A DNA stretch of 64,000 nt from a candidate division WOR-3 bacterium (GTDB taxonomy: Bacteria; Hydrothermota; Hydrothermia; LBFQ01; DSFT01). The notes beneath the pieces were generated by a model. It ran no database searches and was not told the origin of the DNA. It worked only from the letters and a program-made list of their open reading frames with translations. This document shows positions 847-60,032 of this stretch, one piece after another. The stretch is taken from positions 987 to 64,986 of the forward strand of contig CBFGJN010000002.1 of the NCBI GenBank assembly GCA_965649115.1. The letters run 5' to 3'. Numbering within the stretch: the first letter of the stretch is position 1; each line of letters begins with the position of its first letter. A program made the position numbers and the translations under genes.

Positions 847-1982
847 AAAAGATAGGGATTATTGGAGCAACAGGTTCTATTGGTAGTCAAGCAATTGAAG
901 TTATTAGAAAATTTAAAAATTTATATAAAATTGAATTTTTGGTTAGTTATTCTAATTATAGAAGGCTTTTTGAAATTGCAAAGGAATTTAATGTAAAAAA
1001 AATTGGATTAATAAAAGAGGATATTGAAATTAATGATGAGCGTTTTATAATCTACAAGGGTAAAGATGAGATATTAAGCTTAATAGAAGATATTGATTTA
1101 TTATTTGTTTCAACTACTGGCATTTTTTCAATTTTTCCTGTCTTAAAAGCAATTGAAAAAAACATAGATATTGCTCTTGCTAATAAAGAAGTTCTTGTTT
1201 CATTTGGTAAAGTTGTGAATGAAAAATTAAAAACATCAAATTCTAAAATAATTCCTGTTGATTCAGAACATTCAGCGATATTTCAGCTGATAAATCCCTA
1301 TAAAAATGATTTTGTCAGAATAATTCTAACTGCTTCTGGTGGTCCATTTTTGAATTTATCAATTGAAGAGATGGAAAATGTCCCAGTGGAAATGGCATTA
1401 AATCATCCAACTTGGAAAATGGGTAAAAAAATCACAATTGATTCTGCTACACTTTTTAATAAATCTCTTGAAATTATTGAAGCTTATTATTTATTTAAAA
1501 CAAAGAATATAGATGTTGTAATCCATCCACAAAGCATTGTCCATTCATTTGTTCAATTAAAAGATGGTTCATTATTGGCTCATCTTGGTTTTCCCGATAT
1601 GAAAATTCCAATAGCATATGCTTTAAGTTATCCAGATAGACTTGAATTACCATCAGTAATAACTCATCCTTATGATTTTGATAAATTAACATTTCTAAAA
1701 CCTGATTTTGAAAAATTTCCATCTTTAAAAATTGCTTACTTTTGTCTTGAAAAACTTTCTTATTATCCAACTATTATGAATGCTTCAAATGAAGTTGCAG
1801 TTTATAGTTTTCTTGAGGGAAAAATTAAGTTTAGGGATATTTTTAGGGTTGTTGAAGAAACCTTTAATAAGATAGGAAATGAAAATTTAAAAGATGAAAC
1901 ACTTGAAGATTTGTTATATGTTGATAATTTATCTCGTGTTATTGCTGATTCTATCGTGTCAGAAATATCAAAAAGAAGATAA
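843..1982 (+). CDS. dxr: 1-deoxy-D-xylulose 5-phosphate reductoisomerase
   Basis: N-terminal NADPH motif KIGIIGATGSIGSQ and the LANKE and NHPTWKMG motifs are typical of Dxr. The start was moved to the internal Met (MKKIGIIG). Confidence 0.9.
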   Translation: MKKIGIIGATGSIGSQAIEVIRKFKNLYKIEFLVSYSNYRRLFEIAKEFNVKKIGLIKEDIEINDERFIIYKGKDEILSLIEDIDLLFVSTTGIFSIFPVLKAIEKNIDIALANKEVLVSFGKVVNEKLKTSNSKIIPVDSEHSAIFQLINPYKNDFVRIILTASGGPFLNLSIEEMENVPVEMALNHPTWKMGKKITIDSATLFNKSLEIIEAYYLFKTKNIDVVIHPQSIVHSFVQLKDGSLLAHLGFPDMKIPIAYALSYPDRLELPSVITHPYDFDKLTFLKPDFEKFPSLKIAYFCLEKLSYYPTIMNASNEVAVYSFLEGKIKFRDIFRVVEETFNKIGNENLKDETLEDLLYVDNLSRVIADSIVSEISKRR

Positions 1983-9367: not shown

Positions 9368-9606
9368 TTTAAAATTTTAATGGATAAATTGCTTATGTTT
9401 TTGCCTTGTTTAGTAATTCGGCAAGGGGGCTAAGAATTATTGCTTTGTCCAATAATTATTGTTAAATTCTTGATTATCAATAACTTATAAAAGCTTTGAG
9501 GAAATTATAGATTTAAATGGGTATTTATAAGGCGAAGGCTTAAATATAGAAATAATTATATTTTTAGAATTACTAGACAAACCAAAGAATTATAAGCTTT
9601 AAAATT

Positions 9607-10386
9607 TTGACTATGAATTATCAAAATATCCTTTTGTTTTTTGAAAACGAAATAGCTATTATTAAACTAAATAGACCCAAGTCTTTAAATGCTTTAAATA
9701 AAGAGTTAATGAGAGAACTTGCTGATTGTATAGAGAAACTTGAAAATGATAAAAATGTAAAAGTTATTATTATTACTGGTAATGAAAGAGCTTTTGCAGC
9801 AGGTGCGGATTTAAATGAGTTTTACAATAAAACACCTAATGATATGTTTGAAAATTATAGATTTTTGGAATGGGAAAGAGTTTATAAATGCTTTAAACCT
9901 TTAATAGCGGGAGTAAGTGGTTATGCACTTGGTGGTGGTTTTGAACTTGCCATGATTTGTGATATGATTGTTGCTTCTGATAGTGCTATTTTTGGACAAC
10001 CTGAAATAAATGTAGGTCTTATGCCAGGTGCTGGTGGAACCCAACGATTGACTAAAATTATTCAAAAACAAAGAGCAATGGAATATATTTTAAGTGGTAA
10101 GTACATAGATGTTTGGACAGCTTATAAATTGGGAATTGTAAATAAAATCGTTCCAACAGAAATTTATCTTGAAATGACAATAAAATTTGCAAAGGAATTT
10201 TTAAATAAACCTCCAATATCTTTAAATATAGCAAAGGATAGTATAAAAATGAGTTATGAAACGAATCTTCAAGAAGGTCTTGAATACGAAAGAAGAATGT
10301 TTTACTATTTATTTTCTACAAAAGATTCAATGGAAGGTGTTAAAGCTTTTCTTGAAAAAAGAAAACCAAACTTTAAAGGAGAATGA
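9607..10386 (+). CDS. Enoyl-CoA hydratase/isomerase (crotonase) family protein
   Basis: AFAAGADLNEF oxyanion-hole region, GYALGGGFELAMICD, and an overall length of 259 aa. Confidence 0.85.
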   Translation: MTMNYQNILLFFENEIAIIKLNRPKSLNALNKELMRELADCIEKLENDKNVKVIIITGNERAFAAGADLNEFYNKTPNDMFENYRFLEWERVYKCFKPLIAGVSGYALGGGFELAMICDMIVASDSAIFGQPEINVGLMPGAGGTQRLTKIIQKQRAMEYILSGKYIDVWTAYKLGIVNKIVPTEIYLEMTIKFAKEFLNKPPISLNIAKDSIKMSYETNLQEGLEYERRMFYYLFSTKDSMEGVKAFLEKRKPNFKGE

Positions 10387-16226: not shown

Positions 16227-16270
16227 AGGGCTAAAATTTTATAGGAAGGCATAACCTTGGCATAAGATTG

Positions 16271-16307
16271 GACACAGCAAAAACTTATGCTTTAAAATTT
16301 TAGAACT
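16271..16307 (+). promoter_or_regulatory. Predicted promoter for tRNA-Asn: TGGACA, 16-bp spacer, TTTAAAAT, 9 bp to the mature tRNA 5' end
   Basis: Canonical -35/-10 spacing. The mirror arrangement (TTGGACACAGCA, 16 bp, TTTAAAATTTTCAAACT) precedes tRNA-Lys on the minus strand at 47390..47432. Confidence 0.6.
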
Positions 16308-16380
16308 GCCCCAGTAGCTCAACGGGTAGAGCGGTGGGCTGTTAACCCATAGGTTGCAGGTTCGAGTCCTGCCTGGGGCG
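16308..16380 (+). tRNA. tRNA-Asn (anticodon GTT)
   Basis: Cloverleaf folded by hand. Acceptor GCCCCAG/CTGGGGC, anticodon loop CTGTTAA, T-arm GCAGG-TTCGAGT-CCTGC, discriminator G, no encoded CCA. Confidence 0.9.
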
Positions 16381-16382
16381 TT

Positions 16383-16901
16383 ATGTTAATTTTTTTTCTG
16401 ATAGCTCAAAAAGGCGATACAAACAATATCTTATCAAAAATTATAGAAAATAAGAAACCTATTCTTGGAACTGATAAAGCTGAACTAAAAATAGTAATTT
16501 TTGATGACCCTGATTGTCCATTTTGTAGAAGAAGTATGCCACTTGTAAAGCAATTATATGAAAATAATAAAGATAAAGTCGCGGTTTATATAAGATGGTT
16601 TCCATTAGATATTCATCCAGATGCTAAAAGGAAAGCAAAAATTTTGGCTTGTTCAAATGATTACTTTAAAACAAAAGAAGAGTTAATAAAAGGTAATAAT
16701 GTAAAACCTGATATTCCAAATTGTGATGGAGAAAAAATTGTCCAAGAAGATTTAGATTATGGATATAAAATTGGTGTAAGTGGAACACCCACATTTGTCA
16801 TATTTACTAAAAGTGATACTGCACTAATAAGTGGTGCACCACCAGATTATGAAGTATTAAAAAACACACTTTCAAAGAGGTTCAAAATTGACCTCAAGTG
16901 A
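16383..16901 (+). CDS. Thioredoxin-fold thiol:disulfide oxidoreductase (DsbA-like)
   Basis: CPFC active-site motif (DDPDCPFCRRS). The ATG lies 2 nt after the tRNA-Asn 3' end. Confidence 0.7.
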   Translation: MLIFFLIAQKGDTNNILSKIIENKKPILGTDKAELKIVIFDDPDCPFCRRSMPLVKQLYENNKDKVAVYIRWFPLDIHPDAKRKAKILACSNDYFKTKEELIKGNNVKPDIPNCDGEKIVQEDLDYGYKIGVSGTPTFVIFTKSDTALISGAPPDYEVLKNTLSKRFKIDLK

Positions 16902-19823: not shown

Positions 19824-19895
19824 ACTACAACATTGCTTTGTCCAGTAAATAATGTTAAGTAAAAAGCCCCCCGAAGCCGAAATATGGCACTACAA
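19824..19895. repeat. B-module fragment plus GC hairpin flanked by 12-bp direct repeats GGCACTACAACA
   Basis: GGCACTACAACA occurs at 19822 and again at 19884, bracketing a B-terminus fragment (GCTTTGTCCAGTAAATAATGTTAAGT) and a GC hairpin (GCCCCCCGAAGCCGAAATATGGC). Confidence 0.5.
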
Positions 19896-23406: not shown

Positions 23407-23780
23407 GGATTTTGGCTATTGATTATGGTAGGAAAAAATGTGGAATAGCTATAACTGATAAAGAAAATAAAATTGTAATTCCTTATGGTATTATCAAAAC
23501 ATCGGAAATTATTCAAAAATTAAAGGAAATTATAAATCAAAAAGAGGTTAAAAAAATTGTAATTGGCCTTCCACTTTCATTAAGTGGCAAGGAACTTGAA
23601 ATTACCAAAGATGTTTATAGTCTTAAAGAAAAAATTGAAAAAGAATTTCATTTAGAAGTGATACTATTTGATGAAAGAATGACAAGTAAGATATTTAAAG
23701 AAAAGAACAACGATGACTTATCAGCTATGATTATATTAGAAAATTATTTAAAATTTTCTAAAATTCAAAAGCTTTCGTAA
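23403..23780 (+). CDS. ruvX: Holliday-junction resolvase-like RuvX/YqgF
   Basis: MRILAIDYGRKKCGIAITD N-terminus. Confidence 0.85.
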   Translation: MRILAIDYGRKKCGIAITDKENKIVIPYGIIKTSEIIQKLKEIINQKEVKKIVIGLPLSLSGKELEITKDVYSLKEKIEKEFHLEVILFDERMTSKIFKEKNNDDLSAMIILENYLKFSKIQKLS

Positions 23781-24717
23781 AACTTGTATTGTCAAAGTAG
23801 ATTTTCAAAATATACAAACCGTTTTTCAATTTTAGTTTTATTTCATGCTCTCCAGGTTTCATAAATCCTATATCTCTTTCTTCTACTTTACTTCCATTTA
23901 TTGAGAAAATCTCGTATCTTAAATACCTTTCATTGATAAGGTTTATTATTAATTTGCCATTTTTTATATCAAACTTATCAAAGGGTAATTTGGCTTTCTC
24001 ATCATTTGAGAGTGGAGTAAATGTTCCACAGGAACCACTTGCTACCCATTTTGTTATTCTTTCAAGGTAGTTGTTCGTTCCAGGATCCACACAATTCCAC
24101 GAAAAACAATGGTCAGTATATACAATTCTGCCGTTTCCATAATTTCCAACCATTAATGTTGGATCATTTGGTCCATTTGTTGGATCTATAATTAGTACGC
24201 TCCACGAGTTACTCCACGAACCTTCAATATCATAATCACCCGAGGTTTCAGCTATATTCAATCCAGATGTTATTGGGTGTAGTGGAGCGAGTGGTGTATA
24301 TTGTTGGCAGCTTGAAGTCCCGCAGTTCCACCAAGCACTTGAAACAGAAATTGAAAAGATAGCTGGTAAAGTGGGAACATTTCCTGCTTGATTTGGTTGA
24401 TTTATCCAATAACCTCCACCCATGAGAACGTAGTTTTGTAAGTTTGTCGATAGGAAGCCTAATGACCATATTGCTTGAATATCTACTAAAACAACATCAT
24501 ATTTACATAGCGAATCTGCACTTATATTTCCAAGGTTATTCACCTGAACTTGATAAACACTAGCACCAAGTGAAGATAACCTACTTGGAGTATCGTAAAG
24601 ATTTGAATAGATATACAGAACCTTTACTCCATTTAGAGCATTTAGGCCAACTTCGGGATTTTTATAATTTCCTTCTGTTCTTCCATCACTATAAAATAAG
24701 AAGTTAAGGATTAGCAT
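23758..24717 (-). CDS. Secreted hypothetical protein with T9SS-type C-terminal sorting domain-like tail
   Basis: The C-terminal ~80 aa beta-rich tail (GKLIINLINERYLRYEIFSINGSKV...LYILKIYF) resembles Por/T9SS C-terminal domains. The start was placed at the Met preceded by TTTAAAATTATTTTT. The track's TTG at 24738 is the alternative. Confidence 0.5.
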   Translation of the reverse strand: MLILNFLFYSDGRTEGNYKNPEVGLNALNGVKVLYIYSNLYDTPSRLSSLGASVYQVQVNNLGNISADSLCKYDVVLVDIQAIWSLGFLSTNLQNYVLMGGGYWINQPNQAGNVPTLPAIFSISVSSAWWNCGTSSCQQYTPLAPLHPITSGLNIAETSGDYDIEGSWSNSWSVLIIDPTNGPNDPTLMVGNYGNGRIVYTDHCFSWNCVDPGTNNYLERITKWVASGSCGTFTPLSNDEKAKLPFDKFDIKNGKLIINLINERYLRYEIFSINGSKVEERDIGFMKPGEHEIKLKLKNGLYILKIYFDNTSFTKAFEF

Positions 24718-24746
24718 AAAAATAATTTTAAAGCACAACTTTTTAC

Positions 24747-43498: not shown

Positions 43499-45391
43499 AT
43501 GCTTTTGATAACTTTTAGTGCTCTATTTTATAGAGAGTTGAATTTTCAAGGGATTTTTAATTATGTTACAAGCTTAGTCCCTCTTCCAAATGGAAATTAC
43601 ATTCTTGTAATGCATGGACCTTGGCCCAATGGTTGGAATGGGAATTTGGAGTATAATACACTTGTTAAACTTGATAGCCTTGGTAATGTTATAAGTCATA
43701 AAGCTTTCGGTATAAATAGTTCAAGTACAAGATTTCTTGAAATTCTTAAATTGCTTCCAATAAATAATTATCAAAGAATAGTTGGATTTGGTTATGTAAA
43801 TTTTGATAATGCTACTATTTATGGTTCTGATCCTCTTTATATGATATTTGATACAAACTTAAATCCTATTGCTCTATACAATTTACAAAGTACATCAGAT
43901 AGACATGGTTTAGGATTTGATGCCTTTATTCTTTCAGATGGAAAGCTTTTTGGATGGGGATGGGGAACAAGTCCAAGTGGTTCTTTTTATGCTTTTCATG
44001 GTGCTTTCTTTACAAGTATAAATATAGGCTCAGATGTGAATTACTTTTGGACAGGTCCAGCTAATGTTAATAGTAATCTATTGTTTTCAGGAGTAAGAGG
44101 AGAGGTTAGAAATGATACATTTATATTTTACTTAGAACTTAATCAATTTGCCTATGATAGACTCCATCCTTATTTTACTCAAAATAGAGGAAAGTTTAAT
44201 TTGTTTTTCTTTAATACACAAAATCCTTACAATTATTGGGCAAAATCTTATAGGGTTAGTATCTTTTCAGATTATTTAAAAGAGTGGATAGGTGGTTATT
44301 TGCCGGTTAGGACTTCTACTGATCCGGAATGGAACGCTGTTTTAGCAGGTGATATAAATAATAATCTAATTAATGGTTCTAGTGTTGATATTCTTCCTGA
44401 AAGTAATGGTTTTCTTGTTGTTGCAAATGGTGGATTATGGTACGATTCAACTCGGTGTAGGAGCCCGATGATGGGTTGGAGTTATGATTGGGTATTTTAT
44501 AAACAGGATAGGATTTTTATAATTAAATTTGATGCTAATGGGAATTTACTATGGGCTAAAAGATTGGTTTTTCCAGGATTGAACTGGACAAGAGGTGGGG
44601 CTAGAAGGTCAGTATGTCGCACAATTACTGATTCTCTTATCTACACTAATTACTTAAATCATCAAATTAAAATTATTGGTGTTGTGAAGTTTGATGATAG
44701 TTATATTATTGGAGGGATAAGGATTATTGATAGTACTTGTAATACCATAAGATTAGGAAATAATTATTATTGTCAAGGACAACCTAAAAGAATATTTTCA
44801 AAACCATTCTTGATAAAAGTAGATACACTTGGTAATTTTAAATGGGGCTATTATTATGATATTCCGAATCCTTCATATCCATTTTTCTTTATTCATGAAA
44901 ACTTAAATAGAGCTATCGTAAAGGATTTCAATAATAATATTATAATGTTTGGAACAATAAATGATGGTGGTGTTTATGAGGAGGTTTCTGGTGTTGTAAT
45001 AAAGTTTGATAGTGCTGGTAATAGTTGCTTAAATAGAACACCATTTACTTTAAATACTGAACTTGTTGATTGGGCTGCTGATGATCCAAGTGGATATTAT
45101 GGTATAGGTCCTTGGGGTTTTACACATGATGGTTGGGCAGTTTCAGTTATGACAGGACTTTCATTTAGTGGTTTAAGTTGTATTATAACACCCCTTTTAA
45201 ATTCTGAAAATTATAAAAACTGCTTTGAGATTAGAAAAAATAAAATTGTATTCAAAACAAATATTTACTATAAAATATATTCTATTGATGGTAAGCTGAT
45301 TACAAGTGATAATTCAAAAGAAGTTAATCTAAAAGAAGGTGCTTATTTAATTGAAATAAGAAATAGGAGAGTAAAAGTTATTGTTCCCTAA
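43499..45391 (+). CDS. Large secreted hypothetical protein with T9SS-type C-terminal domain-like tail
   Basis: N-terminal signal-like segment and C-terminal beta-rich tail (KIYSIDGKLITSDNSKEVNLKEGAYLIEIRNRRVKVIVP). Preceded by CTTAAAATTCTAAT. Confidence 0.5.
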   Translation: MLLITFSALFYRELNFQGIFNYVTSLVPLPNGNYILVMHGPWPNGWNGNLEYNTLVKLDSLGNVISHKAFGINSSSTRFLEILKLLPINNYQRIVGFGYVNFDNATIYGSDPLYMIFDTNLNPIALYNLQSTSDRHGLGFDAFILSDGKLFGWGWGTSPSGSFYAFHGAFFTSINIGSDVNYFWTGPANVNSNLLFSGVRGEVRNDTFIFYLELNQFAYDRLHPYFTQNRGKFNLFFFNTQNPYNYWAKSYRVSIFSDYLKEWIGGYLPVRTSTDPEWNAVLAGDINNNLINGSSVDILPESNGFLVVANGGLWYDSTRCRSPMMGWSYDWVFYKQDRIFIIKFDANGNLLWAKRLVFPGLNWTRGGARRSVCRTITDSLIYTNYLNHQIKIIGVVKFDDSYIIGGIRIIDSTCNTIRLGNNYYCQGQPKRIFSKPFLIKVDTLGNFKWGYYYDIPNPSYPFFFIHENLNRAIVKDFNNNIIMFGTINDGGVYEEVSGVVIKFDSAGNSCLNRTPFTLNTELVDWAADDPSGYYGIGPWGFTHDGWAVSVMTGLSFSGLSCIITPLLNSENYKNCFEIRKNKIVFKTNIYYKIYSIDGKLITSDNSKEVNLKEGAYLIEIRNRRVKVIVP

Positions 45392-45392
45392 T

Positions 45393-46367
45393 CTAGTTCC
45401 TTGATTTTAAACTATCTTTAATTTTTTCAATTAGCTTTTCTAAATTTATTCTTTCTTTTGCTGAAATTTTAATAACTTCATTTCCTTCAACTTCATTTGG
45501 AATTTCATTTTCATTTACAATATCAATTTTATTTATAACAATTAAAAATGGTTTTTCAAGAATTTTTGGATTATATTTAATTATTTCATTTTTTAACTTA
45601 TGGAATTGCTCTTCAATTGAGGTTTGCGTTGGGTCTAATAAAAATATAATCATTTTAACTCTTTCAATATGTCTTAAAAATTCAATTCCAAGGCCCTTTC
45701 CTTCACTTGCTCCTTCAATAATTCCTGGAATATCTATAATTGTAATTCTGTTATAATAATCATCATAAATAACACCTAAATTTGGAATTATTGTAGTAAA
45801 TGGATAATCACCAATTTTGCTTTTAGCATTTGTTATAGCATTTAAAAGTGTTGATTTGCCTGCGTTAGGAAATCCAACAATTCCAACATCAGCAATTGTT
45901 TTGAGTTCTAATTTTAATTTTAATTTTACTCCCATTTCTCCTTTTTCAGCTATTTGAGGTGTTCTGTTTTCTGGTGTCTTAAAAGCACTGTTCCCTCTTC
46001 CACCTTTTCCGCCTTTCGCAATTAGAATTTTTTGATTGTGATATAAAATTTCACCAATTTTTTCATTTGTTTCTCTATTATAGATAACTGTTCCAATTGG
46101 AACTTTTATGTAAATATCTTTTCCCCTTTTTCCTTTCATATTTTTTGGCTTTCCGTTTTCACCATCACCAGCTTTAAAATAACTTTTCTTTCTAAAATGT
46201 AATAATGATGTTAAGCTCTCATCGCCAACAATATAAACATTTCCTCCATCTCCTCCATCTCCCCCATCAGGGCCTCCTCTTGGGACATATTTTTCTCTTC
46301 TAAAATGAACTATTCCATCTCCACCCTTTCCAGATTCTACAATTATATAAGCAATATCATAACTCAT
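45393..46367 (-). CDS. obg: GTPase Obg/CgtA
   Basis: Obg fold N-terminus with Gly-rich GPDGGDGGDGG and G-domain GFPNAGKST. Confidence 0.9.
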   Translation of the reverse strand: MSYDIAYIIVESGKGGDGIVHFRREKYVPRGGPDGGDGGDGGNVYIVGDESLTSLLHFRKKSYFKAGDGENGKPKNMKGKRGKDIYIKVPIGTVIYNRETNEKIGEILYHNQKILIAKGGKGGRGNSAFKTPENRTPQIAEKGEMGVKLKLKLELKTIADVGIVGFPNAGKSTLLNAITNAKSKIGDYPFTTIIPNLGVIYDDYYNRITIIDIPGIIEGASEGKGLGIEFLRHIERVKMIIFLLDPTQTSIEEQFHKLKNEIIKYNPKILEKPFLIVINKIDIVNENEIPNEVEGNEVIKISAKERINLEKLIEKIKDSLKSRN

Positions 46368-46903
46368 AGAAATAAACTATAAAATTTTTTTGGTTCAATG
46401 ATTTCAATTCCTAAATCCATGGCTAATTTAATCTGTCCTTCATCAGCTGTTGATAATATAGCTTTTTGCTCAATAGCAAGTAAAATCGTATCTACATCTT
46501 CTTTTGAATCAACAATTCCTTCCCTCATAACCCTTCTATAATTTTCTCTCAAATATTTTATTGCTTCATCTTTGTTTTCAAATTCTCTAACAGCTTTTTC
46601 ACTAACTCTTAAACCTCTATTTATTCTATCTCTCATTTCTGATAAAAAATTATATAGAACAATTCCAGGGATTTTTACTTTATATCTATTTGGTGTTTTA
46701 ACTCTGAAAAATTTTTGAAAAAGGTCGGGAATTTTTATAAATGTTGAAATTTCACTTAATGTACTTGGTGTTAAATAAACTTTAATTTCTTTATTATTTT
46801 TAAGCTTTTCAATTAACCAGTTTAATGCGCCTTCTATTGAATTTGAAATTTCCTTAAAGCTATAAGGGTTTGTTATGACACTTGTATCTATTACAATTTT
46901 CAT
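46364..46903 (-). CDS. PIN-like domain protein
   Basis: IVIDTSV N-terminus and a late acidic TADEG region. Weak assignment. Confidence 0.35.
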   Translation of the reverse strand: MKIVIDTSVITNPYSFKEISNSIEGALNWLIEKLKNNKEIKVYLTPSTLSEISTFIKIPDLFQKFFRVKTPNRYKVKIPGIVLYNFLSEMRDRINRGLRVSEKAVREFENKDEAIKYLRENYRRVMREGIVDSKEDVDTILLAIEQKAILSTADEGQIKLAMDLGIEIIEPKKFYSLFL

Positions 46904-47313
46904 TAATTATAAGCACAATTATTTGCATATATTTCAACATTTTGAAATACTTTTAAATTTACTTTAAATGTATCAGGTGTTTGTCCCTGACAGAAGTAGG
47001 ACCTAGTTTCCTTTATTCCATTAACTTTAACTGAAAATTTCACAATTCCATTTTCATGACCACTTGGAATACCTATTTTGATTGTATCAAATGTTATTAC
47101 TTTTGAATTTGAGCTTTTCGTAGGACCACTTATTGTTAGGTTTCCATCATAAGTCGCATATATTGTCCAATTTTGAACAGTTTGCATAGAAGAATCAACA
47201 TATATTTTTCCAGAAACTTTTAAACTATCAACAATAATAATTTCTTCACTTTTTTTTGGACCTGATGAACAAGCAATTAAAATAATAGTAATAATAGGGA
47301 ATAAAAATCTCAT
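46903..47313 (-). CDS. Hypothetical lipoprotein
   Basis: Signal peptide with lipobox LIACSS. The ATG lies 2 nt downstream of the tRNA-Lys 3' end. Confidence 0.45.
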   Translation of the reverse strand: MRFLFPIITIILIACSSGPKKSEEIIIVDSLKVSGKIYVDSSMQTVQNWTIYATYDGNLTISGPTKSSNSKVITFDTIKIGIPSGHENGIVKFSVKVNGIKETRSYFCQGQTPDTFKVNLKVFQNVEIYANNCAYN

Positions 47314-47315
47314 AA

Positions 47316-47389
47316 TGGGCCCGCCGGGATTCGAACCCGGGACCCCTGGATTAAAAATCCAGTGCTCTAACCAACTGAGCTACGGGCCC
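47316..47389 (-). tRNA. tRNA-Lys (anticodon TTT)
   Basis: Hand-folded. Acceptor GGGCCCG/CGGGCCC, D-arm GCTCAGTTGGTTAGAGC, anticodon loop TTTTTAA, T-arm CCGGG-TTCGAAT-CCCGG, discriminator A. Confidence 0.9.
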
Positions 47390-47618
47390 AAGTTTGAAAA
47401 TTTTAAAGGACTAAAAATTGCTGTGTCCAAAAATTCTGGAATTATTTATTTTTCAAAAGCCTTCGGCTTTAAAATACCCATTTTTTGCTTTGGGGGGCAG
47501 AGCCCCCCTTAATAATCCCCCCATAATTATTGGACAAAGCAACTAAAAATTAGTTTTTTGAAAAACCCTGTCTTATGCCTTGCCCCCCTAAACCCCCCGA
47601 TAGATCAATTGATTGTCA

Positions 47619-48302
47619 TTAAATTACTTTACCAAATTTTCTTTTTCTTTTTGAGTAATCTTCTATTGCTTTTAAAAATTCTTCCCTTCTAAATTCTGGC
47701 CATAGTGTTTTTGTAAAATATAATTCTGAATAGCTAATTTGCCATAATAAAAAGTTTGAAATTCTATATTCTCCACTAGTTCTAATAAGAAGGTCAGGAT
47801 CTGGAAGGTTTGGATCATATAAAAAATTCCTAAAAGTTTCTTCATCAATAGATTCTAATTGTGATTTTATAATTTTATTAACTGCATCTAAAATTTCTTG
47901 TCTTCCACCATAGGAAAGTGCTAAGTATAGTTTTAATTTATTGTTATTTTTTGTTTTTTCAATAGCTTTAAATAGTTCATTTTTTACATCATTTGGCAGA
48001 TAATCTAATTTTCCAATTGCTCTAATTGAAACGCCATTTCTATTTAACTCATCTACTTCATTTTTTAATAGAAATTTTAATAATTCCATAAGACCCTTTA
48101 TCTCTTCCTTTGGTCTTTGCCAATTTTCTGTTGAAAACGAATATAATGTTAAATACTCTATTTTAAGTTCTAAGCAAACTCTAATAATTTCTCTAACGGA
48201 CTCGGAACCTACCTTATGACCTATTATTCTTGGAAGATTCCTTTCACTAGCCCATCGCCCATTTCCATCCATTATAATTGCAATATGTTTAGGAATTTTC
48301 AA
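47619..48302 (-). CDS. uppS: Undecaprenyl pyrophosphate synthase
   Basis: HIAIIMDGNGRWA and the cis-prenyltransferase core. Confidence 0.9.
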   Translation of the reverse strand: MKIPKHIAIIMDGNGRWASERNLPRIIGHKVGSESVREIIRVCLELKIEYLTLYSFSTENWQRPKEEIKGLMELLKFLLKNEVDELNRNGVSIRAIGKLDYLPNDVKNELFKAIEKTKNNNKLKLYLALSYGGRQEILDAVNKIIKSQLESIDEETFRNFLYDPNLPDPDLLIRTSGEYRISNFLLWQISYSELYFTKTLWPEFRREEFLKAIEDYSKRKRKFGKVI

Positions 48303-50589: not shown

Positions 50590-53094
50590 ATGTTCTTAAA
50601 TAATGAGCGATTTACCGATAAAGCAAAAAGAGCGCTTCTCTTAGCAAGAGAGGAAGCTTTAAGATTTGGAAATGAATATATAGGAACTGAACATCTTTTG
50701 CTTGGAATACTTAATGTTGGTGAAAGTATCGCTATTTCTGCTCTTACAAATTTGGGTGTGGATATAGAAGAGCTTAGAATAGCTGTTGAACATTCCATTC
50801 ATAGAGGTGAATTTTCAAGGAGAGATCTTTCTGCTGAACTTCCACTTAATGCTTCATCAAAGAAGGCTATAAATGGTGCTATTGAGGAAGCAAGAAGAAT
50901 GGGTCAAACATTTGTTGGGCCAGAGCATTTGCTTCTTGGATTGCTAAAAGATAGAAGATCACTTGCTGCTCAAATTCTTGAAAGTATGGGTATTGATTAT
51001 GATAGTATAAGACAAGAGATAATTAGATTGATAAATCAAAATAGATATGAAGAATCTATGGGTTATTCATCTGGATATAGTTATTTTCCTTCTTATGAGC
51101 AAAGAAGAACAACTACACCACAAACACCAAGGCAATCAAATACAAGAGTTTTAGATAGTTTTTCAATAGATTTGACGCAATTAGCAAGGGAAGGTAAATT
51201 GGACCCTGTAATTGGTAGGGAGGAGGAGATTGAAAGAGTTATTCAAGTTCTTTCAAGGAGAAAGAAAAATAATCCTGTTTTAATTGGTGAGCCTGGTGTT
51301 GGTAAAACTGCTATTGTTGAAGGTCTTGCACAGAGAATAGCGAATGATGAAGTTCCTCCTGTATTAAGAAATAAGAGAATTGTTGCCCTTGATCTTGCTG
51401 CTATTGTGGCGGGAACAAAGTATAGGGGTCAATTTGAAGAAAGAATAAAAGCTATATTAAATGAAGTTATAAATGCTCCTGATGTTATACTATTTATAGA
51501 TGAGCTTCATACAATGATTGGAGCGGGAGCTGCGGAAGGTGCATTAGATGCTGCTAATATCTTAAAACCTGCACTTGCAAGAGGGCAAATAAGACTTATT
51601 GGTGCTACTACACTTGAAGAATATAAAAAATATATTGAAAGAGATGGAGCACTTGAAAGAAGATTTCAACCAATAATTATTGAACCTCCATCTGTTGAAG
51701 AAACTATTAGAATTCTCGAAGGTTTAAAAAGGGAATATGAAGAATATCATGGAGTAATATATACACAAGAGGCAATTGAAGCTGCTGCCAAACTTTCTGA
51801 TAGATACATTCAAGATAGATATTTGCCTGATAAGGCTATTGATGTTTTAGATGAAGCAGGTGCAATGGTTAAGCTTACTAAGCAGATTGACGATCCAGAA
51901 TTAAACAAACTTCAAAGAGAATTAGAACAAATTAGAAAAAGAAAAGCGTTTGCAGTTAGAAAAGAGGAATATAACTTAGCAGAAAAATTGAAACATAAAG
52001 AGGAAGAAATTCTTGAAAAAATTAGAAAGAGAAAAATGGAGATAAAAAAGGAAACTGCTGAGGTTACTTATGAAGATGTTGCTAAGGTAATATCCAGGTG
52101 GACAGGCATACCACTAACTCAAATAAGTTCAGATGAGGAAACAAAATTATTAAAACTTGAAGAAGAACTTAAAAAATATGTAATAGGTCAAGATTATGCT
52201 ATTAGCTTATTAGCAAAAGCTATTAGAAGGAATAGAGCAGGTATTAAAGATCCTAAAAGACCTATTGGTTCGTTTGTATTTCTTGGTCCAACAGGTGTTG
52301 GTAAAACTGAACTTGCTAAAAGTTTAGCAAGAGTACTATTTGGAAGTGAAGATGCACTTATAAGAATAGATATGAGTGAGTACATGGAAAGACATAATGT
52401 TTCAAGACTTATAGGCTCACCTCCTGGTTATGTTGGATATGAAGAGGGTGGTCAACTAACTGAAAAAGTTAGAAGAAAACCTTATAGTGTTATTCTTTTT
52501 GATGAAATTGAAAAGGCACATCCTGATGTATTTAATATATTGCTTCAAATTCTTGAAGATGGTATATTAACTGATGGACTTGGTAGGACAGTTAGTTTCA
52601 GAAATACAATTATAATAATGACATCAAATATAGGAACAAGACAAATTAGAGAAACAAAACATTTAGGTTTTTCAGTAAAAGAAGAAAAGGAACTTGATTA
52701 TAATGAGCTTGAAAAGTTATTGAAAGATGAATTTAAGAAGGTTGTTTCTCCAGAATTTTTAAATAGAATAGATGAAGTTATTGTTTTTAGACCATTAAAC
52801 AAAGAAGATTTGAAGAAAATTATTGAAGTTATGTTAAGAGATTTAAGAGAAAGATTGAAAGAAAAACATATTACGATAAAAGTTTCAGATAGATTAAAGG
52901 AATTTTTGGTTAATCAAAGCTATGACCCTGAATTTGGAGCAAGACCATTAAGAAGAGCTATAAGAAAATATATAGAGGAGCCAATAAGTGAAGCAATAAT
53001 AAAAGGTGAAGTTAAGGAAAATTCTGATGTTCTAATTGATTTAAATGAGAATAATGAAATTATTTTTAGAACGGATGTTTTAAGTGTGCTTTAA
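50590..53094 (+). CDS. clpC: ATP-dependent Clp protease ATP-binding subunit ClpC (ClpA/B family)
   Basis: Two Clp_N repeats, two AAA+ modules ([18 protein letters not shown]), a short middle domain and an HLGFS ClpP-docking loop. Confidence 0.9.
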
Positions 53095-53103
53095 AATTTC
53101 AAA

Positions 53104-53370
53104 ATGCCAAAAGTAAAATTATCTGTTAAGAAAAGAGAAAGACAAAACCTAAAGAGAAGACTTAGAAATTTATGGTACAAAAAGAGAATTAAAGATGCTA
53201 TAAAGCGTTTTCTAAAAGCAAGTCTTGAAGAAAGAAAGGAAATTATAAGGGAAATATATGAATATGTAGATAAGGCAGTTAAGAAAGGTGTTATTCATAA
53301 AAATAAGGGAGCGAGAATAAAGAGTAAATATGCCAAGTTATGCTTAGAAGGACAAAACAAAGGGAAGTGA
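53104..53370 (+). CDS. rpsT: 30S ribosomal protein S20
   Basis: Basic 88 aa protein, KKRERQNLKRRLRN. Preceded by TTTAAAATTTCAAA. Confidence 0.7.
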   Translation: MPKVKLSVKKRERQNLKRRLRNLWYKKRIKDAIKRFLKASLEERKEIIREIYEYVDKAVKKGVIHKNKGARIKSKYAKLCLEGQNKGK

Positions 53371-58213: not shown

Positions 58214-59089
58214 TTAAATAACTTCTCTTGGTTTTAGATTTAAAATATCCCAAATTTCATTTTCAACACAAGTATTTCCTTCAAGTAGCATTTTAATCTG
58301 TTCATCACTTGCAGGAAACAATTCAAAATATCTAAAAATTCTCGCTATCGGTAAGATAATAAATTTTGGAATATAAATTGGAATTATAAATTTATTTTTT
58401 GATTTTGCTACTGCCTTAACAAAATCAACATATTTCCATTCTTTATTTCCACAAATATGAAAAATTCTTTTATATGTTTTTTCATTATTTATACTCCTTA
58501 CGAAAATTTCTGCAACATCTTCTCTATGAACAGGACTAATTTTATATTTACCATCTGAAAAAATTGGAAAGAAAATAAATTTAGATAAATCAAGGATTAA
58601 TTTTTTAAAATTAAATAACTCATCATCATCTATTATTAAACTTGGTCTAAAAATTGTCCAATTTAAATCAGTTTTTTTGAGATATTCTTCTGCCATATAT
58701 TTTGTTCTTTGATATGTAGTTCCATTTTCTTTAACACCATTTGCACTCATTAAAATAAATCGTTTTATATTTAATTTAATTGCTAAATCAATTGTTTTTT
58801 TAGCCCAATTGTAATGATAATCAATAAATTTCATATTTTTTTGTGGGAATTCTCTTATCAAACCAATTAAATAAATAACACAACTTACATTGTAATTTTT
58901 AATTTCATTTTCATAATCTTGAATATTTTGAACATCTCCAATTATAAATTTTACTTTATCTTTTAAATCTCCAAGTTTTCTTATAGATTTTTCTCTTATT
59001 AGAAGGATTGGATTATAATTATATTCCAAAAGTTTTCTTGTTATAGCTTTTCCTACAAAACCGCTTCCTCCAACAACAAGCACATTCAT
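58214..59089 (-). CDS. NAD(P)-binding epimerase/dehydratase-like SDR (NmrA/NDUFA9-like)
   Basis: VLVVGGSGFVGKAI Rossmann motif. Confidence 0.75.
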   Translation of the reverse strand: MNVLVVGGSGFVGKAITRKLLEYNYNPILLIREKSIRKLGDLKDKVKFIIGDVQNIQDYENEIKNYNVSCVIYLIGLIREFPQKNMKFIDYHYNWAKKTIDLAIKLNIKRFILMSANGVKENGTTYQRTKYMAEEYLKKTDLNWTIFRPSLIIDDDELFNFKKLILDLSKFIFFPIFSDGKYKISPVHREDVAEIFVRSINNEKTYKRIFHICGNKEWKYVDFVKAVAKSKNKFIIPIYIPKFIILPIARIFRYFELFPASDEQIKMLLEGNTCVENEIWDILNLKPREVI

Positions 59090-59949
59090 CTTTTTCTCCT
59101 CCTTTTATAAATTTGCTTTTTTATATCTTTTAAAAGTTCGCCATATGATGTATATATTTTTCTTCTTAAATTTGGTTTTTTCCCGTACATTGGTCCTCCC
59201 AAAAATAATATGCAGTTTATTTTATTACAACTCTTATCTAAAATGTCTATACTTTTTTCAAATTTTTTATTATCAACAACATAAACTGCTGAAATTATTA
59301 AAAATTTAGGTTTTTCTCTTTCAATTGCCTTTATAATATCAGAATAAGGCGTGTTTGAACCTATATATACAACATTATATCCTTCATAATTTAAAATAAA
59401 ATCAATAATTCTCAAAGGTATTTCGTGAATATCACCTTCAAGTGAAGTTATTATAAATTTTATTTTCTTTTTCTTTTTAAATGAAAATAAATTTTTTAAG
59501 TTTATAATTGATTCAATAACTTTTGATGATGCAATGTGTTCTTGATCTACACTAATTTCTCCTTTTTCCCAAAGCAAACCAAGTTCAAACAAACTCTTGC
59601 TTATAATTAAATCAAATGCTTTAACAATTCCAAATGAAAATATGATTACTTTTAATAAGTTTTCAACTTCTTTTTGACTTTTATTTAACATGTAATTTAG
59701 TAATTGTTTTGATAATTCTTCATAATCTTCAAAAATAATATAAGTTAATGTGTTTGTATCAGCATTTGAAAAGCCAGCTAAATCAGTTATTTTATTTTCT
59801 CTTATAAACTTTATAACTTCTTCAATAGGAAATCTTCTATGACCACCAATTGTTTTATGAAATTTTAGTAATCCTTCTCTTGACCAATTTTTTATCGTCG
59901 CTTCACTAACACCTAAAATTTTTGCAATATCTTTGGTTTTTAGAAACAT
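59086..59949 (-). CDS. CarH/LitR-type MerR-family regulator with B12-binding domain (light-responsive)
   Basis: MerR HTH (IAKILGVSEATIKNW), a W-x9-EH motif (WEKGEISVDQEH) and a Rossmann B12-binding motif (EGDIHEIP). The start was set at the Met after a CCTTTAAAATTATCAAA box because the track start at 60021 is over-extended. Confidence 0.7.
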   Translation of the reverse strand: MFLKTKDIAKILGVSEATIKNWSREGLLKFHKTIGGHRRFPIEEVIKFIRENKITDLAGFSNADTNTLTYIIFEDYEELSKQLLNYMLNKSQKEVENLLKVIIFSFGIVKAFDLIISKSLFELGLLWEKGEISVDQEHIASSKVIESIINLKNLFSFKKKKKIKFIITSLEGDIHEIPLRIIDFILNYEGYNVVYIGSNTPYSDIIKAIEREKPKFLIISAVYVVDNKKFEKSIDILDKSCNKINCILFLGGPMYGKKPNLRRKIYTSYGELLKDIKKQIYKRRRKR

Positions 59950-60032
59950 TTTGATAATTTTAAAGGATAAAATCGCTAAAAAAGATAAAAAAGAAAAAAA
60001 AGATAATTTAGGCTTTAACATTTTAAAACTTT
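59950..60032. promoter_or_regulatory. Divergent promoter region between the carH-like operon (-) and crtI operon (+). It contains TTTAAAA boxes for both directions.
   Basis: CCTTTAAAATTATCAAA precedes the corrected carH ATG (read on the minus strand). CATTTTAAAACTTT precedes the crtI ATG. A-rich direct repeats lie between. Confidence 0.45.

Follow-up and report, generated by a model that had tools for sequence, protein, structure and literature searches.

Known systems in which tRNAs adjoin other transcripts

The punctuation of animal mitochondrial transcripts by transfer RNAs (tRNAs) was reportedly described by Ojala, Montoya & Attardi in 1981. According to two papers, mitochondrial messenger RNAs (mRNAs) are leaderless and are released by ribonuclease P (RNase P) and RNase Z acting at the flanking tRNAs (PMC11649783; PMC6924987). 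A comparable step is proposed here for a tRNA-Lys(UUU) gene and the lipoprotein operon that begins 2 nucleotides (nt) behind it, on the minus strand of a 64,000-nt stretch of DNA (the window; positions 987 to 64,986 of contig CBFGJN010000002.1, assembly GCA_965649115.1) from a candidate division WOR-3 bacterium, a member of a hot-spring lineage. Both systems have tRNA genes that abut coding sequence and do not encode CCA. In mitochondria, excision of the tRNA by RNase P and RNase Z/ELAC2 sets the mRNA ends and yields leaderless mRNAs, whereas for the WOR-3 bacterium this is a proposal. Furthermore, the bacterium is free-living, each tRNA has its own promoter 8-10 nt upstream instead of belonging to a genome-length polycistronic transcript, the tRNA would define only the 5' side of the mRNA, and genes led by a Shine-Dalgarno sequence coexist in the genome.

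In the thrU-tyrU-glyT-thrT-tufB operon of Escherichia coli, the tRNAs encode CCA and a spacer of about 100 nt with a Shine-Dalgarno sequence precedes tufB. As in that operon, the WOR-3 protein gene would be transcribed from a tRNA promoter and parted from the tRNA by processing; the WOR-3 spacer, however, measures 1-8 nt and lacks a Shine-Dalgarno sequence, so that the processing site itself would have to create a translatable 5' end.

Leaderless mRNAs made directly by promoters are found in Actinobacteria, Deinococcus-Thermus and archaea (PMC4633059, PMC4681348). Their translation begins no more than a few nt from the 5' end, with no Shine-Dalgarno sequence involved, a geometry shared at the sequence level by at least 14 genes of the window, but they carry primary triphosphate ends, whereas the proposed WOR-3 ends would be processed and monophosphorylated. 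In Thermococcus kodakarensis, a tRNA-Lys lies inside the 159-nt 5' untranslated region (UTR) of TK0306; units of a tRNA and a small nucleolar RNA are also known, which RNase Z cuts (PMC4247193); plants have dicistronic tRNA-mRNA transcripts (PMC8166872). The archaeal and plant co-transcripts likewise place a tRNA upstream of another functional RNA, and RNase Z is invoked for the release; unlike the locus described here, none has a start codon 1-3 nt past the discriminator nucleotide or is reported as a systematic bacterial feature involving multiple tRNAs. A literature search returned mitochondrial, archaeal long-UTR, plant and generic leaderless work, and no bacterial account of leaderless genes abutting tRNAs. 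No known system among those compared joins a 1-3-nt junction with recurrence across many tRNAs of one lineage.

Anatomy of the tRNA-Lys junction

The unit reads on the minus strand as follows.

47316..47389, minus: tRNA-Lys(UUU); Rfam RF00005, 79.4 bits (gathering score 29); ARAGORN anticodon ttt
47314..47315, minus: TT spacer (T47315, T47314) between the discriminator A47316 and the ATG at 47313-47311
46903..47313, minus: lipoprotein gene, 136 amino acids (aa), lipobox LIAC, no Pfam family; begins MRFLFPIITIILIAC
46364..46903, minus: HARP-type PIN_5 gene, 179 aa (PIN_5, E=2e-44); ATGA start/stop overlap with the lipoprotein gene
45393..46367, minus: obg GTPase, last gene of the unit (GTP1_OBG, E=3.6e-58); 4-nt overlap with the HARP gene

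That a tRNA-Lys directly abuts the start codon of a lipoprotein operon, as the initial annotation had it, is confirmed, with the tRNA (47389..47316), the TT and the ATG at 47313 all in place. The acceptor stem consists of 5' GGGCCCG and 3' CGGGCCC, followed by the discriminator A47316, and CCA is not encoded by the gene. The coordinates given by ARAGORN are 1 nt wider on either side than those of Rfam, because T47390 can pair with A47316. The cloverleaf is present in the minimum-free-energy fold predicted for the precursor, and a related locus (L147) shows a compensatory change in the T-stem. In the same predicted fold the cloverleaf is followed by wholly unpaired mRNA, the AUG lying 2 nt from the acceptor helix. 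The TT is proposed to represent both the first two nt of the released mRNA and the start of the tRNA 3' trailer.

The reading frame of the lipoprotein gene offers no earlier start, for upstream of ATG 47313 a stop codon is reached before any in-frame start codon; MRFLFPIITIILIAC has the features of a lipoprotein signal peptide with a lipobox, matching the pattern [LVI][ASTG][GA]C. A junction of 1-8 nt, the range found across the lineage, is too short to hold a promoter, terminator or Shine-Dalgarno sequence. The promoter and terminator scans returned nothing at the junction, and the sole terminator-like site from the promoter to obg was a weak palindrome inside obg. A Shine-Dalgarno-like role of the tRNA 3' end itself was considered for the GGCGGG of tRNA-Lys and rejected, since this stretch takes part in the pairing of the acceptor and T stems, and the tRNAs for Gly(GCC) and Thr have no purine run; across the families examined, the tRNA 3' ends share no Shine-Dalgarno-like purine run. 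The idea that a mobile element had integrated at the tRNA was also rejected, because the downstream genes are housekeeping genes, an integrase is absent and the junction is conserved. The open reading frame (ORF) 47315..47512 on the plus strand is an artefact, as already supposed in the initial annotation: its translation (MGPPGFEPGTPG...) is the antisense of tRNA-Lys.

The tRNA-Asn unit and recurrence in relatives

The other tRNA gene of the window is arranged in the same way.

16269..16298, plus: promoter of the tRNA-Asn unit, TGGACA (16269..16274), 18 nt, TAAAAT (16293..16298)
16308..16380, plus: tRNA-Asn(GUU), discriminator G16380, no encoded CCA; Rfam 76 bits; ARAGORN anticodon gtt
16383..16901, plus: DsbA/thioredoxin-like gene of 172 aa, separated from tRNA-Asn by TT (2 nt)

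The two junctions had been taken to match beyond coincidence, down to the dinucleotide. The likeness stands, both consisting of the discriminator, TT and ATG (G16380 and ATG 16383 for tRNA-Asn), while the exact TT is not universal in relatives, where the spacers are T, TT, CT, TTT, TAT and TTTGA, and also 4-8 nt long with TTG starts.

The related loci (given L numbers below) come from metagenome-assembled genomes (MAGs) labelled 'Candidatus Hydrothermia' or WOR-3, a group for which the name at NCBI is now class Caldifarciminia, phylum Caldifarciminota; homologues of the PIN_5 protein of the window carry the label candidate division WOR-3. The window has a G+C content of 26.8%, and L001 and L002 belong to the same species (98.8% and 99.9% identity). 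In related WOR-3/'Ca. Hydrothermia' DNA, a conserved ORF starts 1-8 nt past the discriminator for eight tRNA isoacceptors, or nine if an uncertain tRNA-Leu is included, the spacer being 1-3 nt in six of these families and 4-8 nt in three more. Indeed, the initial annotation had allowed that its two cases might be the only ones, and the arrangement recurs for Thr(GGT), Gly(GCC), Gly(TCC), Arg(CCT), Ala(GGC), Arg(CCG) and possibly Leu(TAA). The families listed here are those of the low-GC contigs among 50 loci obtained by scanning Joint Genome Institute (JGI) metagenomes for the -10 box followed by a tRNA D-arm and T-arm, each metagenome family having a counterpart in the WOR-3/Hydrothermia loci L015, L076, L081, L083 and L114 or in the window; the last four lines concern tRNAs that lay in the same loci by chance and were not selected by the pattern.

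Asn(GTT): discriminator G, spacer TT, ATG; DsbA-like protein, 82-96% identity; 9 loci
Lys(TTT): discriminator A, spacer TT, CT or T, ATG; lipoprotein, down to 64% identity; about 12 loci
Thr(GGT): discriminator T, spacer T, ATG; cytochrome-c-assembly protein (CcmC-like), PF01578; 9 loci
Gly(GCC): discriminator T, spacer TT, CT or TTT, ATG; ribosomal protein L19, PF01245; 7 loci
Arg(CCT): discriminator G, spacer CT, ATG; S8 protease
Gly(TCC): discriminator T, spacer of 7-8 nt, TTG in low-GC contigs; AAA+ protein of 380 aa
Arg(ACG): no abutting ORF
Ala(GGC): discriminator A, spacer TTTGA, ATG; protein of 184 aa
Arg(CCG): discriminator A, spacer TAT, ATG; protein of 426 aa with GxGxxG at residues 6-11
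Leu(TAA): discriminator A, spacer CAT, TTG; 84 aa, weak candidate
Arg(CCG), second context: no abutting ORF

The junction is conserved while the downstream proteins fall to 64-82% identity, and to 32% for the partner of Gly(TCC). In L003-L007 (84% identity in PIN_5), which have a different upstream neighbour, tRNA-Lys is followed by a single T and the ATG of an orthologous lipoprotein (64-65% identical), and the gene order lipoprotein, PIN_5, Obg is preserved in L001-L007. At tRNA-Asn, 8 metagenome loci retain TT-ATG, and their proteins show 82-96% identity. A distant WOR-3 locus, L011 (59% identity in PIN_5), has the same -10 box and a tRNA-Arg(TCT) with discriminator A, spacer TTGCTGG and the ATG of a 205-aa ORF. 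The AAA+ partner of tRNA-Gly(TCC) has an orthologue (32% identity, E=2e-55) behind the same tRNA, with a 4-nt spacer, in WOR-3 genomes of 52% G+C, the low-GC side having 27%; the arrangement is therefore old.

The start codons downstream are upheld by the proteins themselves. In each of nine lipoprotein variants from relatives (64-90% identity), M-R/F is followed by a hydrophobic stretch, and the position of IAC/LAC does not change; in the partner of tRNA-Asn, ATG 16383 is the only in-frame ATG, GTG or TTG ahead of the CPFC active site; and the Pfam match of L19 begins at residue 6.

The pattern is present in 2/2 tRNAs of the window and in 6/7 promoter-proximal tRNA families of the relatives. 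As a control, use was made of a scan of genome contigs with CTTTAAAATT-N14-18-TAGCTCA, which yields mostly unrelated AT-rich matches: among the matches listed (at least 118 loci), 7 were useful WOR-3/Hydrothermia loci, and the tRNAs from other phyla formed the control set. None of these 80 tRNAs had an ATG-started ORF of at least 80 aa within 10 nt, and three had TTG or GTG ORFs, one of them probably from a mis-binned WOR-3 contig. The difference between 6/7 and 0/80 is significant (Fisher test, p=1.4e-8), and the adjacency of tRNA and ORF exceeds chance. The architecture, its conservation and the lack of a Shine-Dalgarno sequence, promoter or terminator at the junction are in this way established. 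None of the tRNAs of the lineage that were examined encodes CCA, and the trailers of its non-abutting tRNAs also open with C or T, followed by T.

Two loci are worth recording separately. In L142 (Ga0209741_1014599), promoter and tRNA-Lys(UUU), with acceptor GGGTCCG, occur in tandem (1044-1125 and 1247-1328, minus strand); the second copy alone abuts the lipoprotein ATG (spacer CT), while the first is followed by a fragment resembling the 3' end of uppS (...tggccagaatttagaag...), which suggests a local duplication. The 1.1-kb contig L022 (JAMOUL010000424.1), labelled Aminicenantes, carries the WOR-3 -10 box and a tRNA-Gly(TCC) with the junction CTTC-TTG-AAG-CTG seen in the WOR-3 loci L122 and L170, and is probably a mis-binned WOR-3 fragment.

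Promoter of the tRNA units

The following elements lie upstream of tRNA-Lys.

47400..47411, minus: -10 box CCTTTAAAATTT, with the TAAAAT hexamer at 47405..47400
47424..47429, minus: -35-like TGGACA, from the promoter scan, within the repeated motif TTGGACACAGCAA (47418..47430)
47390..47393, minus: predicted 4-nt 5' leader (ACUU), deduced from the -10 spacing and presumed to be removed by RNase P
47418..47542: 125-base-pair (bp) element with 22-nt inverted repeats at its ends (86% complementary) and an internal GGGGGGC/GCCCCCC hairpin, between uppS and the tRNA-Lys promoter

With 10 of 12 matches, TGGACA (47429..47424), 18 nt and TAAAAT (47405..47400) form the top sigma-70-like site in 45300..47700, in line with the promoter that the initial annotation had surmised upstream of the tRNA. 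The 16 bp that it gave between the CAGCAA motif and TTTAAAATTTT have to be corrected to 10 bp (TTTTTAGTCC), counted from the end of CAGCAA at 47418 to TTTAAAATTTTCAAACT (47407..47391). For both tRNAs of the window the -10 box CTTTAAAATTTT ends 8-9 nt, and TAAAAT 9-10 nt, ahead of tRNA position +1. The box, CTTTAAAATT(T/A)T, is found 8-10 nt before tRNA +1 upstream of every related tRNA found, and the copy at tRNA-Asn (16290..16299) is identical. The tRNA-Lys leader is predicted to be ACUU because the start was placed 7 nt after the -10 hexamer, as for the A of the ATG in the leaderless genes of the window; if transcription does start there, the tRNA precursors would carry leaders of only 3-4 nt.

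The -35 motif is less regular. TTGGACACAGCAA is missing in the relatives L138, L163 and L142, so that the unit can do without it; because its distance from the -10 box ranges from 18 to about 70 nt and orthologous promoters lack it, it was rejected as an obligatory promoter element. When up to 2 mismatches are allowed, the window holds 11 copies of the motif TTGGACA[C/A]AGCAA, where 1.2 would be expected (2756, 9440, 14939, 15252, 16268, 19833, 25612, 39777, 47418, 47530, 49461). It comes in two flavours: CAGAATTT-TTGGACACAGCAA, upstream of -10 boxes at a spacing of 18 to about 30 nt, and the longer TTGATTATCAAG.ATTTAACA..ATTTATTGGACAAAGCAA at 9452 (minus), 15252 (plus) and 25612 (plus), with partial copies at 19845 (minus) and 47530 (plus). 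At tRNA-Lys, the TGGACA hexamer is supplied by the tRNA-proximal end of the 125-bp element, which looks like a small mobile or repeat element carrying promoter parts; L138, L163 and L142 lack it, and in these relatives a mere 3 nt separate the uppS stop codon and the -10 box. A 29-nt promoter variant in L002 was discarded, being a run of N that marks a scaffold gap. Intergenic G6/C6 runs and hairpins of G and C only (e.g. TCGGGGGGTTTAGGGGGGCAAGG) are also conspicuous at 47545-47618 and in other intergenic regions, for instance 19845 (minus), 39777 (plus) and 14951 (minus), in DNA of 27% G+C; they may be terminators or structural elements, and were missed by the simple terminator scan because no T-run follows.

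Predicted leaderless genes elsewhere in the window

Short or missing leaders are not peculiar to the tRNA units. TAAAAT ends 6-7 nt before the start codon of at least 9 genes of the window and 9-11 nt before that of four more, all without a Shine-Dalgarno sequence; overall, the combination of TAAAAT at 6-11 nt from the start codon with the lack of a Shine-Dalgarno sequence is seen in at least 14 genes (starts at 2802, 9367 minus, 9613, 14900 minus, 15299, 19927, 24717 minus, 27923 minus, 27967, 30677, 41966 minus, 43499, 53104 and 59949 minus). Among them are the genes for S20 (53104), ThiD (9367, minus), an enoyl-CoA hydratase (9613), an OmpA-family or OmpA-like protein (2802) and a 630-aa protein (43499), and the Pfam alignments of genes of this type begin 1-23 residues from the N-termini. 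About 12 other genes of the window, mostly internal or leadered, carry AAGGAGG. The prevalence of this leaderless geometry is established; it indicates that the organism routinely makes and translates mRNAs that are leaderless or have leaders of 2-4 nt, and that near-leaderless translation would be the normal mode for the first gene of most transcription units here. The organism's own leaders of 0-4 nt, (A)CUU-AUG for one, are similar to the UU-AUG product predicted for the tRNA-Lys unit.

An archaeal-type fructose-1,6-bisphosphate aldolase/phosphatase gene (PF01950; 48299-49414, minus) has the same promoter motif and a 27-nt leader with AAGGAGG, so that leadered and leaderless designs use one promoter type. 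At 9607, 15224, 23758..24738 and 59086..60021 the start of the longest ORF lies upstream of the promoter, and that start is therefore probably wrong. The -10 box of S20 overlaps the stop codon of a ClpC-like gene (50590..53094), with the S20 ATG 9 nt past that stop (53090-53106), an extreme packing of a promoter into a gene end.

A homologue of protein-only RNase P in the same operon

The gene described as PIN-like in the initial annotation does follow in the same operon, and its product can be named more exactly. Over residues 3-177 it matches PDB entries 8kd9 and 7f3e ('RNA-free ribonuclease P') with E=1e-33, the acidic motifs DTSV, DSKEDVD and ADEG lining up, and it scores 150 bits against TIGR03875 (cut-off 95). 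These alignments make it a full-length homologue of the protein-only RNase P known as HARP. HARPs are members of the PIN_5 cluster, and WOR-3 is not among the bacterial phyla listed as HARP carriers in a 2024 review (PMC10941002). The gene of the window is alike to HARP of Aquifex and its homologues in being a full-length PIN_5 protein (179 aa, where about 190 aa is usual for the class) that aligns with the solved structures. HARPs, however, cut the 5' side of tRNAs and not the 3' side (PMC10941002), and the homologue of the window, a putative RNase P, is not the enzyme expected at the tRNA 3' side. The transcript that encodes this homologue of a tRNA-processing enzyme thus seems to need tRNA processing for its own expression. 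In relatives the PIN_5/HARP gene is also found after secY-adk (L011) or after a glyoxalase gene (L008), and several NCBI annotations of MAGs give it truncated starts (102-160 aa).

Proposed mechanism and alternatives

We propose, at a probability of roughly 0.6, that tRNA and operon are co-transcribed and that an RNase Z-type cut after the discriminator frees a 5'-UUAUG... mRNA for near-leaderless translation. Promoter, tRNA-Lys, lipoprotein gene, HARP gene and obg would form one transcription unit, transcription starting 3-4 nt upstream of the tRNA from the strong promoter TGGACA, 18 nt, TAAAAT. The short 5' leader would be taken off by RNase P, and an RNase Z-type endonuclease would cut right after the discriminator, one cut giving both the tRNA 3' end, to which CCA would then be added, and an mRNA starting with 5'-P-UUAUG, to be translated as a leaderless or near-leaderless message. 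The 1-3 pyrimidines between discriminator and AUG would be the minimal 3' trailer needed by the nuclease. More generally, tRNA genes would be removable 5' modules that lend their promoters to protein genes, for at least eight isoacceptors, and, wherever an upstream gene reads in, would also punctuate between mRNAs; in L138, L163 and L142, with the uppS stop codon so close to the -10 box, fbp-uppS read-through would be resolved by excision of the tRNA, which would amount to true punctuation.

What this scheme infers is that tRNA and operon are transcribed together, which nuclease acts, where exactly it cuts and that the released product is translated. An RNase Z-type cut directly after the discriminator is expected because the tRNA genes do not encode CCA. 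Only a cut at the discriminator would preserve both the tRNA and the start codon, since 1-3 nt separate them and the tRNA needs its 3' end for CCA addition. The spacers U, UU, CU, UUU and UAU and the similar trailers of non-abutting tRNAs suggest pyrimidines as a minimal processing determinant; downstream uracils reportedly activate RNase Z of Bacillus subtilis (Pellegrini et al. 2012). RNase Z cuts CCA-less precursors directly after the discriminator and is inhibited by CC or CCA trailers (PMC7479834).

Several points weigh against the proposal. The supplementary tables of a WOR-3 genome survey show no entry for K00784, ribonuclease Z or ribonuclease P, and no ORF of at least 150 aa with the HxHxDH motif of RNase Z was found in about 0.5 Mb of partly redundant low-GC DNA of the lineage, which amounts to a fraction of a genome. 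A 5' monophosphate, as the released mRNA would carry, speeds decay in many bacteria, and in E. coli leaderless translation is reduced by extra nt before the 5'-terminal AUG. Strictly leaderless initiation is harder to reconcile with the 5-8-nt spacers and TTG starts (Gly(TCC), Leu), the C that opens some trailers suits RNase Z of B. subtilis less, and Arg(ACG) as well as one context of Arg(CCG) have no abutting ORF, so that the design is common and not universal.

In the strongest alternative, architecture and co-transcription hold and another nuclease makes the cut, be it RNase E/G, Y or J with exonuclease trimming, or a PIN enzyme such as the HARP of the operon. In its favour, about 0.5 Mb of lineage DNA yielded no RNase Z gene, some trailers begin with C, and the HARP homologue is encoded in the same operon and, in relatives, in translation-related operons (e.g. 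after secY-adk in L011). A downstream cut with 3' trimming would, however, destroy the start codon where the gap between tRNA and AUG is 1-3 nt; the cut at the discriminator, the sole one to spare both products, is the defining activity of RNase Z (PMC7479834); and HARPs are known for the 5' side of tRNAs (PMC10941002). We therefore regard the substitution of another nuclease as unlikely, if worth keeping in mind.

Rather less probable is the possibility that the uncleaved tRNA-mRNA precursor is translated, by an internal start at the AUG beside the folded tRNA, the spacing merely reflecting compaction of the genome. Compaction is evident in overlapping starts and stops and in the -10 box that overlaps the clpC stop codon, and the mRNA past the AUG is predicted to be unstructured. 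Nevertheless, a tRNA works only once its 3' end is free, which makes a cut at the discriminator or beside it necessary in any case; a Shine-Dalgarno sequence is lacking; and the stable acceptor helix of 7-8 bp, 2 nt upstream of the AUG in the predicted fold, would fill the space of the 30S subunit. Intergenic spacers of 100-300 bp exist, including one of 229 bp just upstream of tRNA-Lys, so that compaction alone does not force a 2-nt gap.

It is very improbable that a separate promoter within the tRNA gene serves the ORF, so that the T-loop TTCGAAT, say, would be a weak -10 element giving an independent mRNA with a short leader. TCGAAT does match TATAAT at 4/6 positions, 15 nt upstream of the ATG, but the promoters of the lineage use a very uniform TTTAAAAT box, which is absent from the last 30 nt of every tRNA, the promoter scan found no site within the tRNA, and T-loops are universal whereas abutting ORFs are specific to the lineage (0/80 controls). 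Hardly credible at all is a coincidental adjacency, or mis-called starts with the true ones further downstream behind ordinary leaders, since, although the starts are predicted ones, two families have TTG starts and the Leu(TAA) candidate (84 aa) is weak, 9/9 lipoprotein variants have a signal peptide with lipobox running from the abutting ATG, the partner of tRNA-Asn has no other in-frame start before CPFC, L19 aligns from residue 6 and the partner of Arg(CCG) has GxGxxG at residues 6-11, the junction persists where the proteins share 64-96% identity (32% in the case of the AAA+ protein) and 0/80 control tRNAs show it.

Meaning for the lineage

Beyond the single locus, and with slightly better than even odds in our estimate, the whole lineage (WOR-3/Caldifarciminota, class 'Hydrothermia') would routinely use tRNA genes as removable 5' modules, RNase Z-type excision making near-leaderless mRNAs for housekeeping functions (L19, the Obg/HARP operon, the CcmC-like and DsbA-like proteins, among others). 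A cultured WOR-3 isolate now exists (PMC12285271), which makes the prediction directly testable. Gene finders and annotators mishandle these loci, as seen in the truncated starts of PIN_5/HARP and in the spurious antisense ORF through the tRNA.

If the proposal is true, protein expression in these bacteria would be tied to tRNA transcription and to tRNA-processing capacity, including a protein-only RNase P homologue that is itself encoded on such a transcript. The lineage would offer a system for asking how mRNAs with a 5' monophosphate and a leader of 1-3 nt fare on bacterial ribosomes, how RNase Z copes with a whole operon as trailer, and whether L19, Obg and protein-only RNase P are co-regulated with tRNA synthesis. 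Translatable mRNA 5' ends would be made by tRNA processing and not by transcription initiation, which so far is textbook knowledge only for mitochondria. WOR-3 would then provide a free-living bacterial counterpart of mitochondrial tRNA punctuation, and it would follow that tRNA punctuation and leaderless translation can arise, or persist, together in a free-living bacterium.

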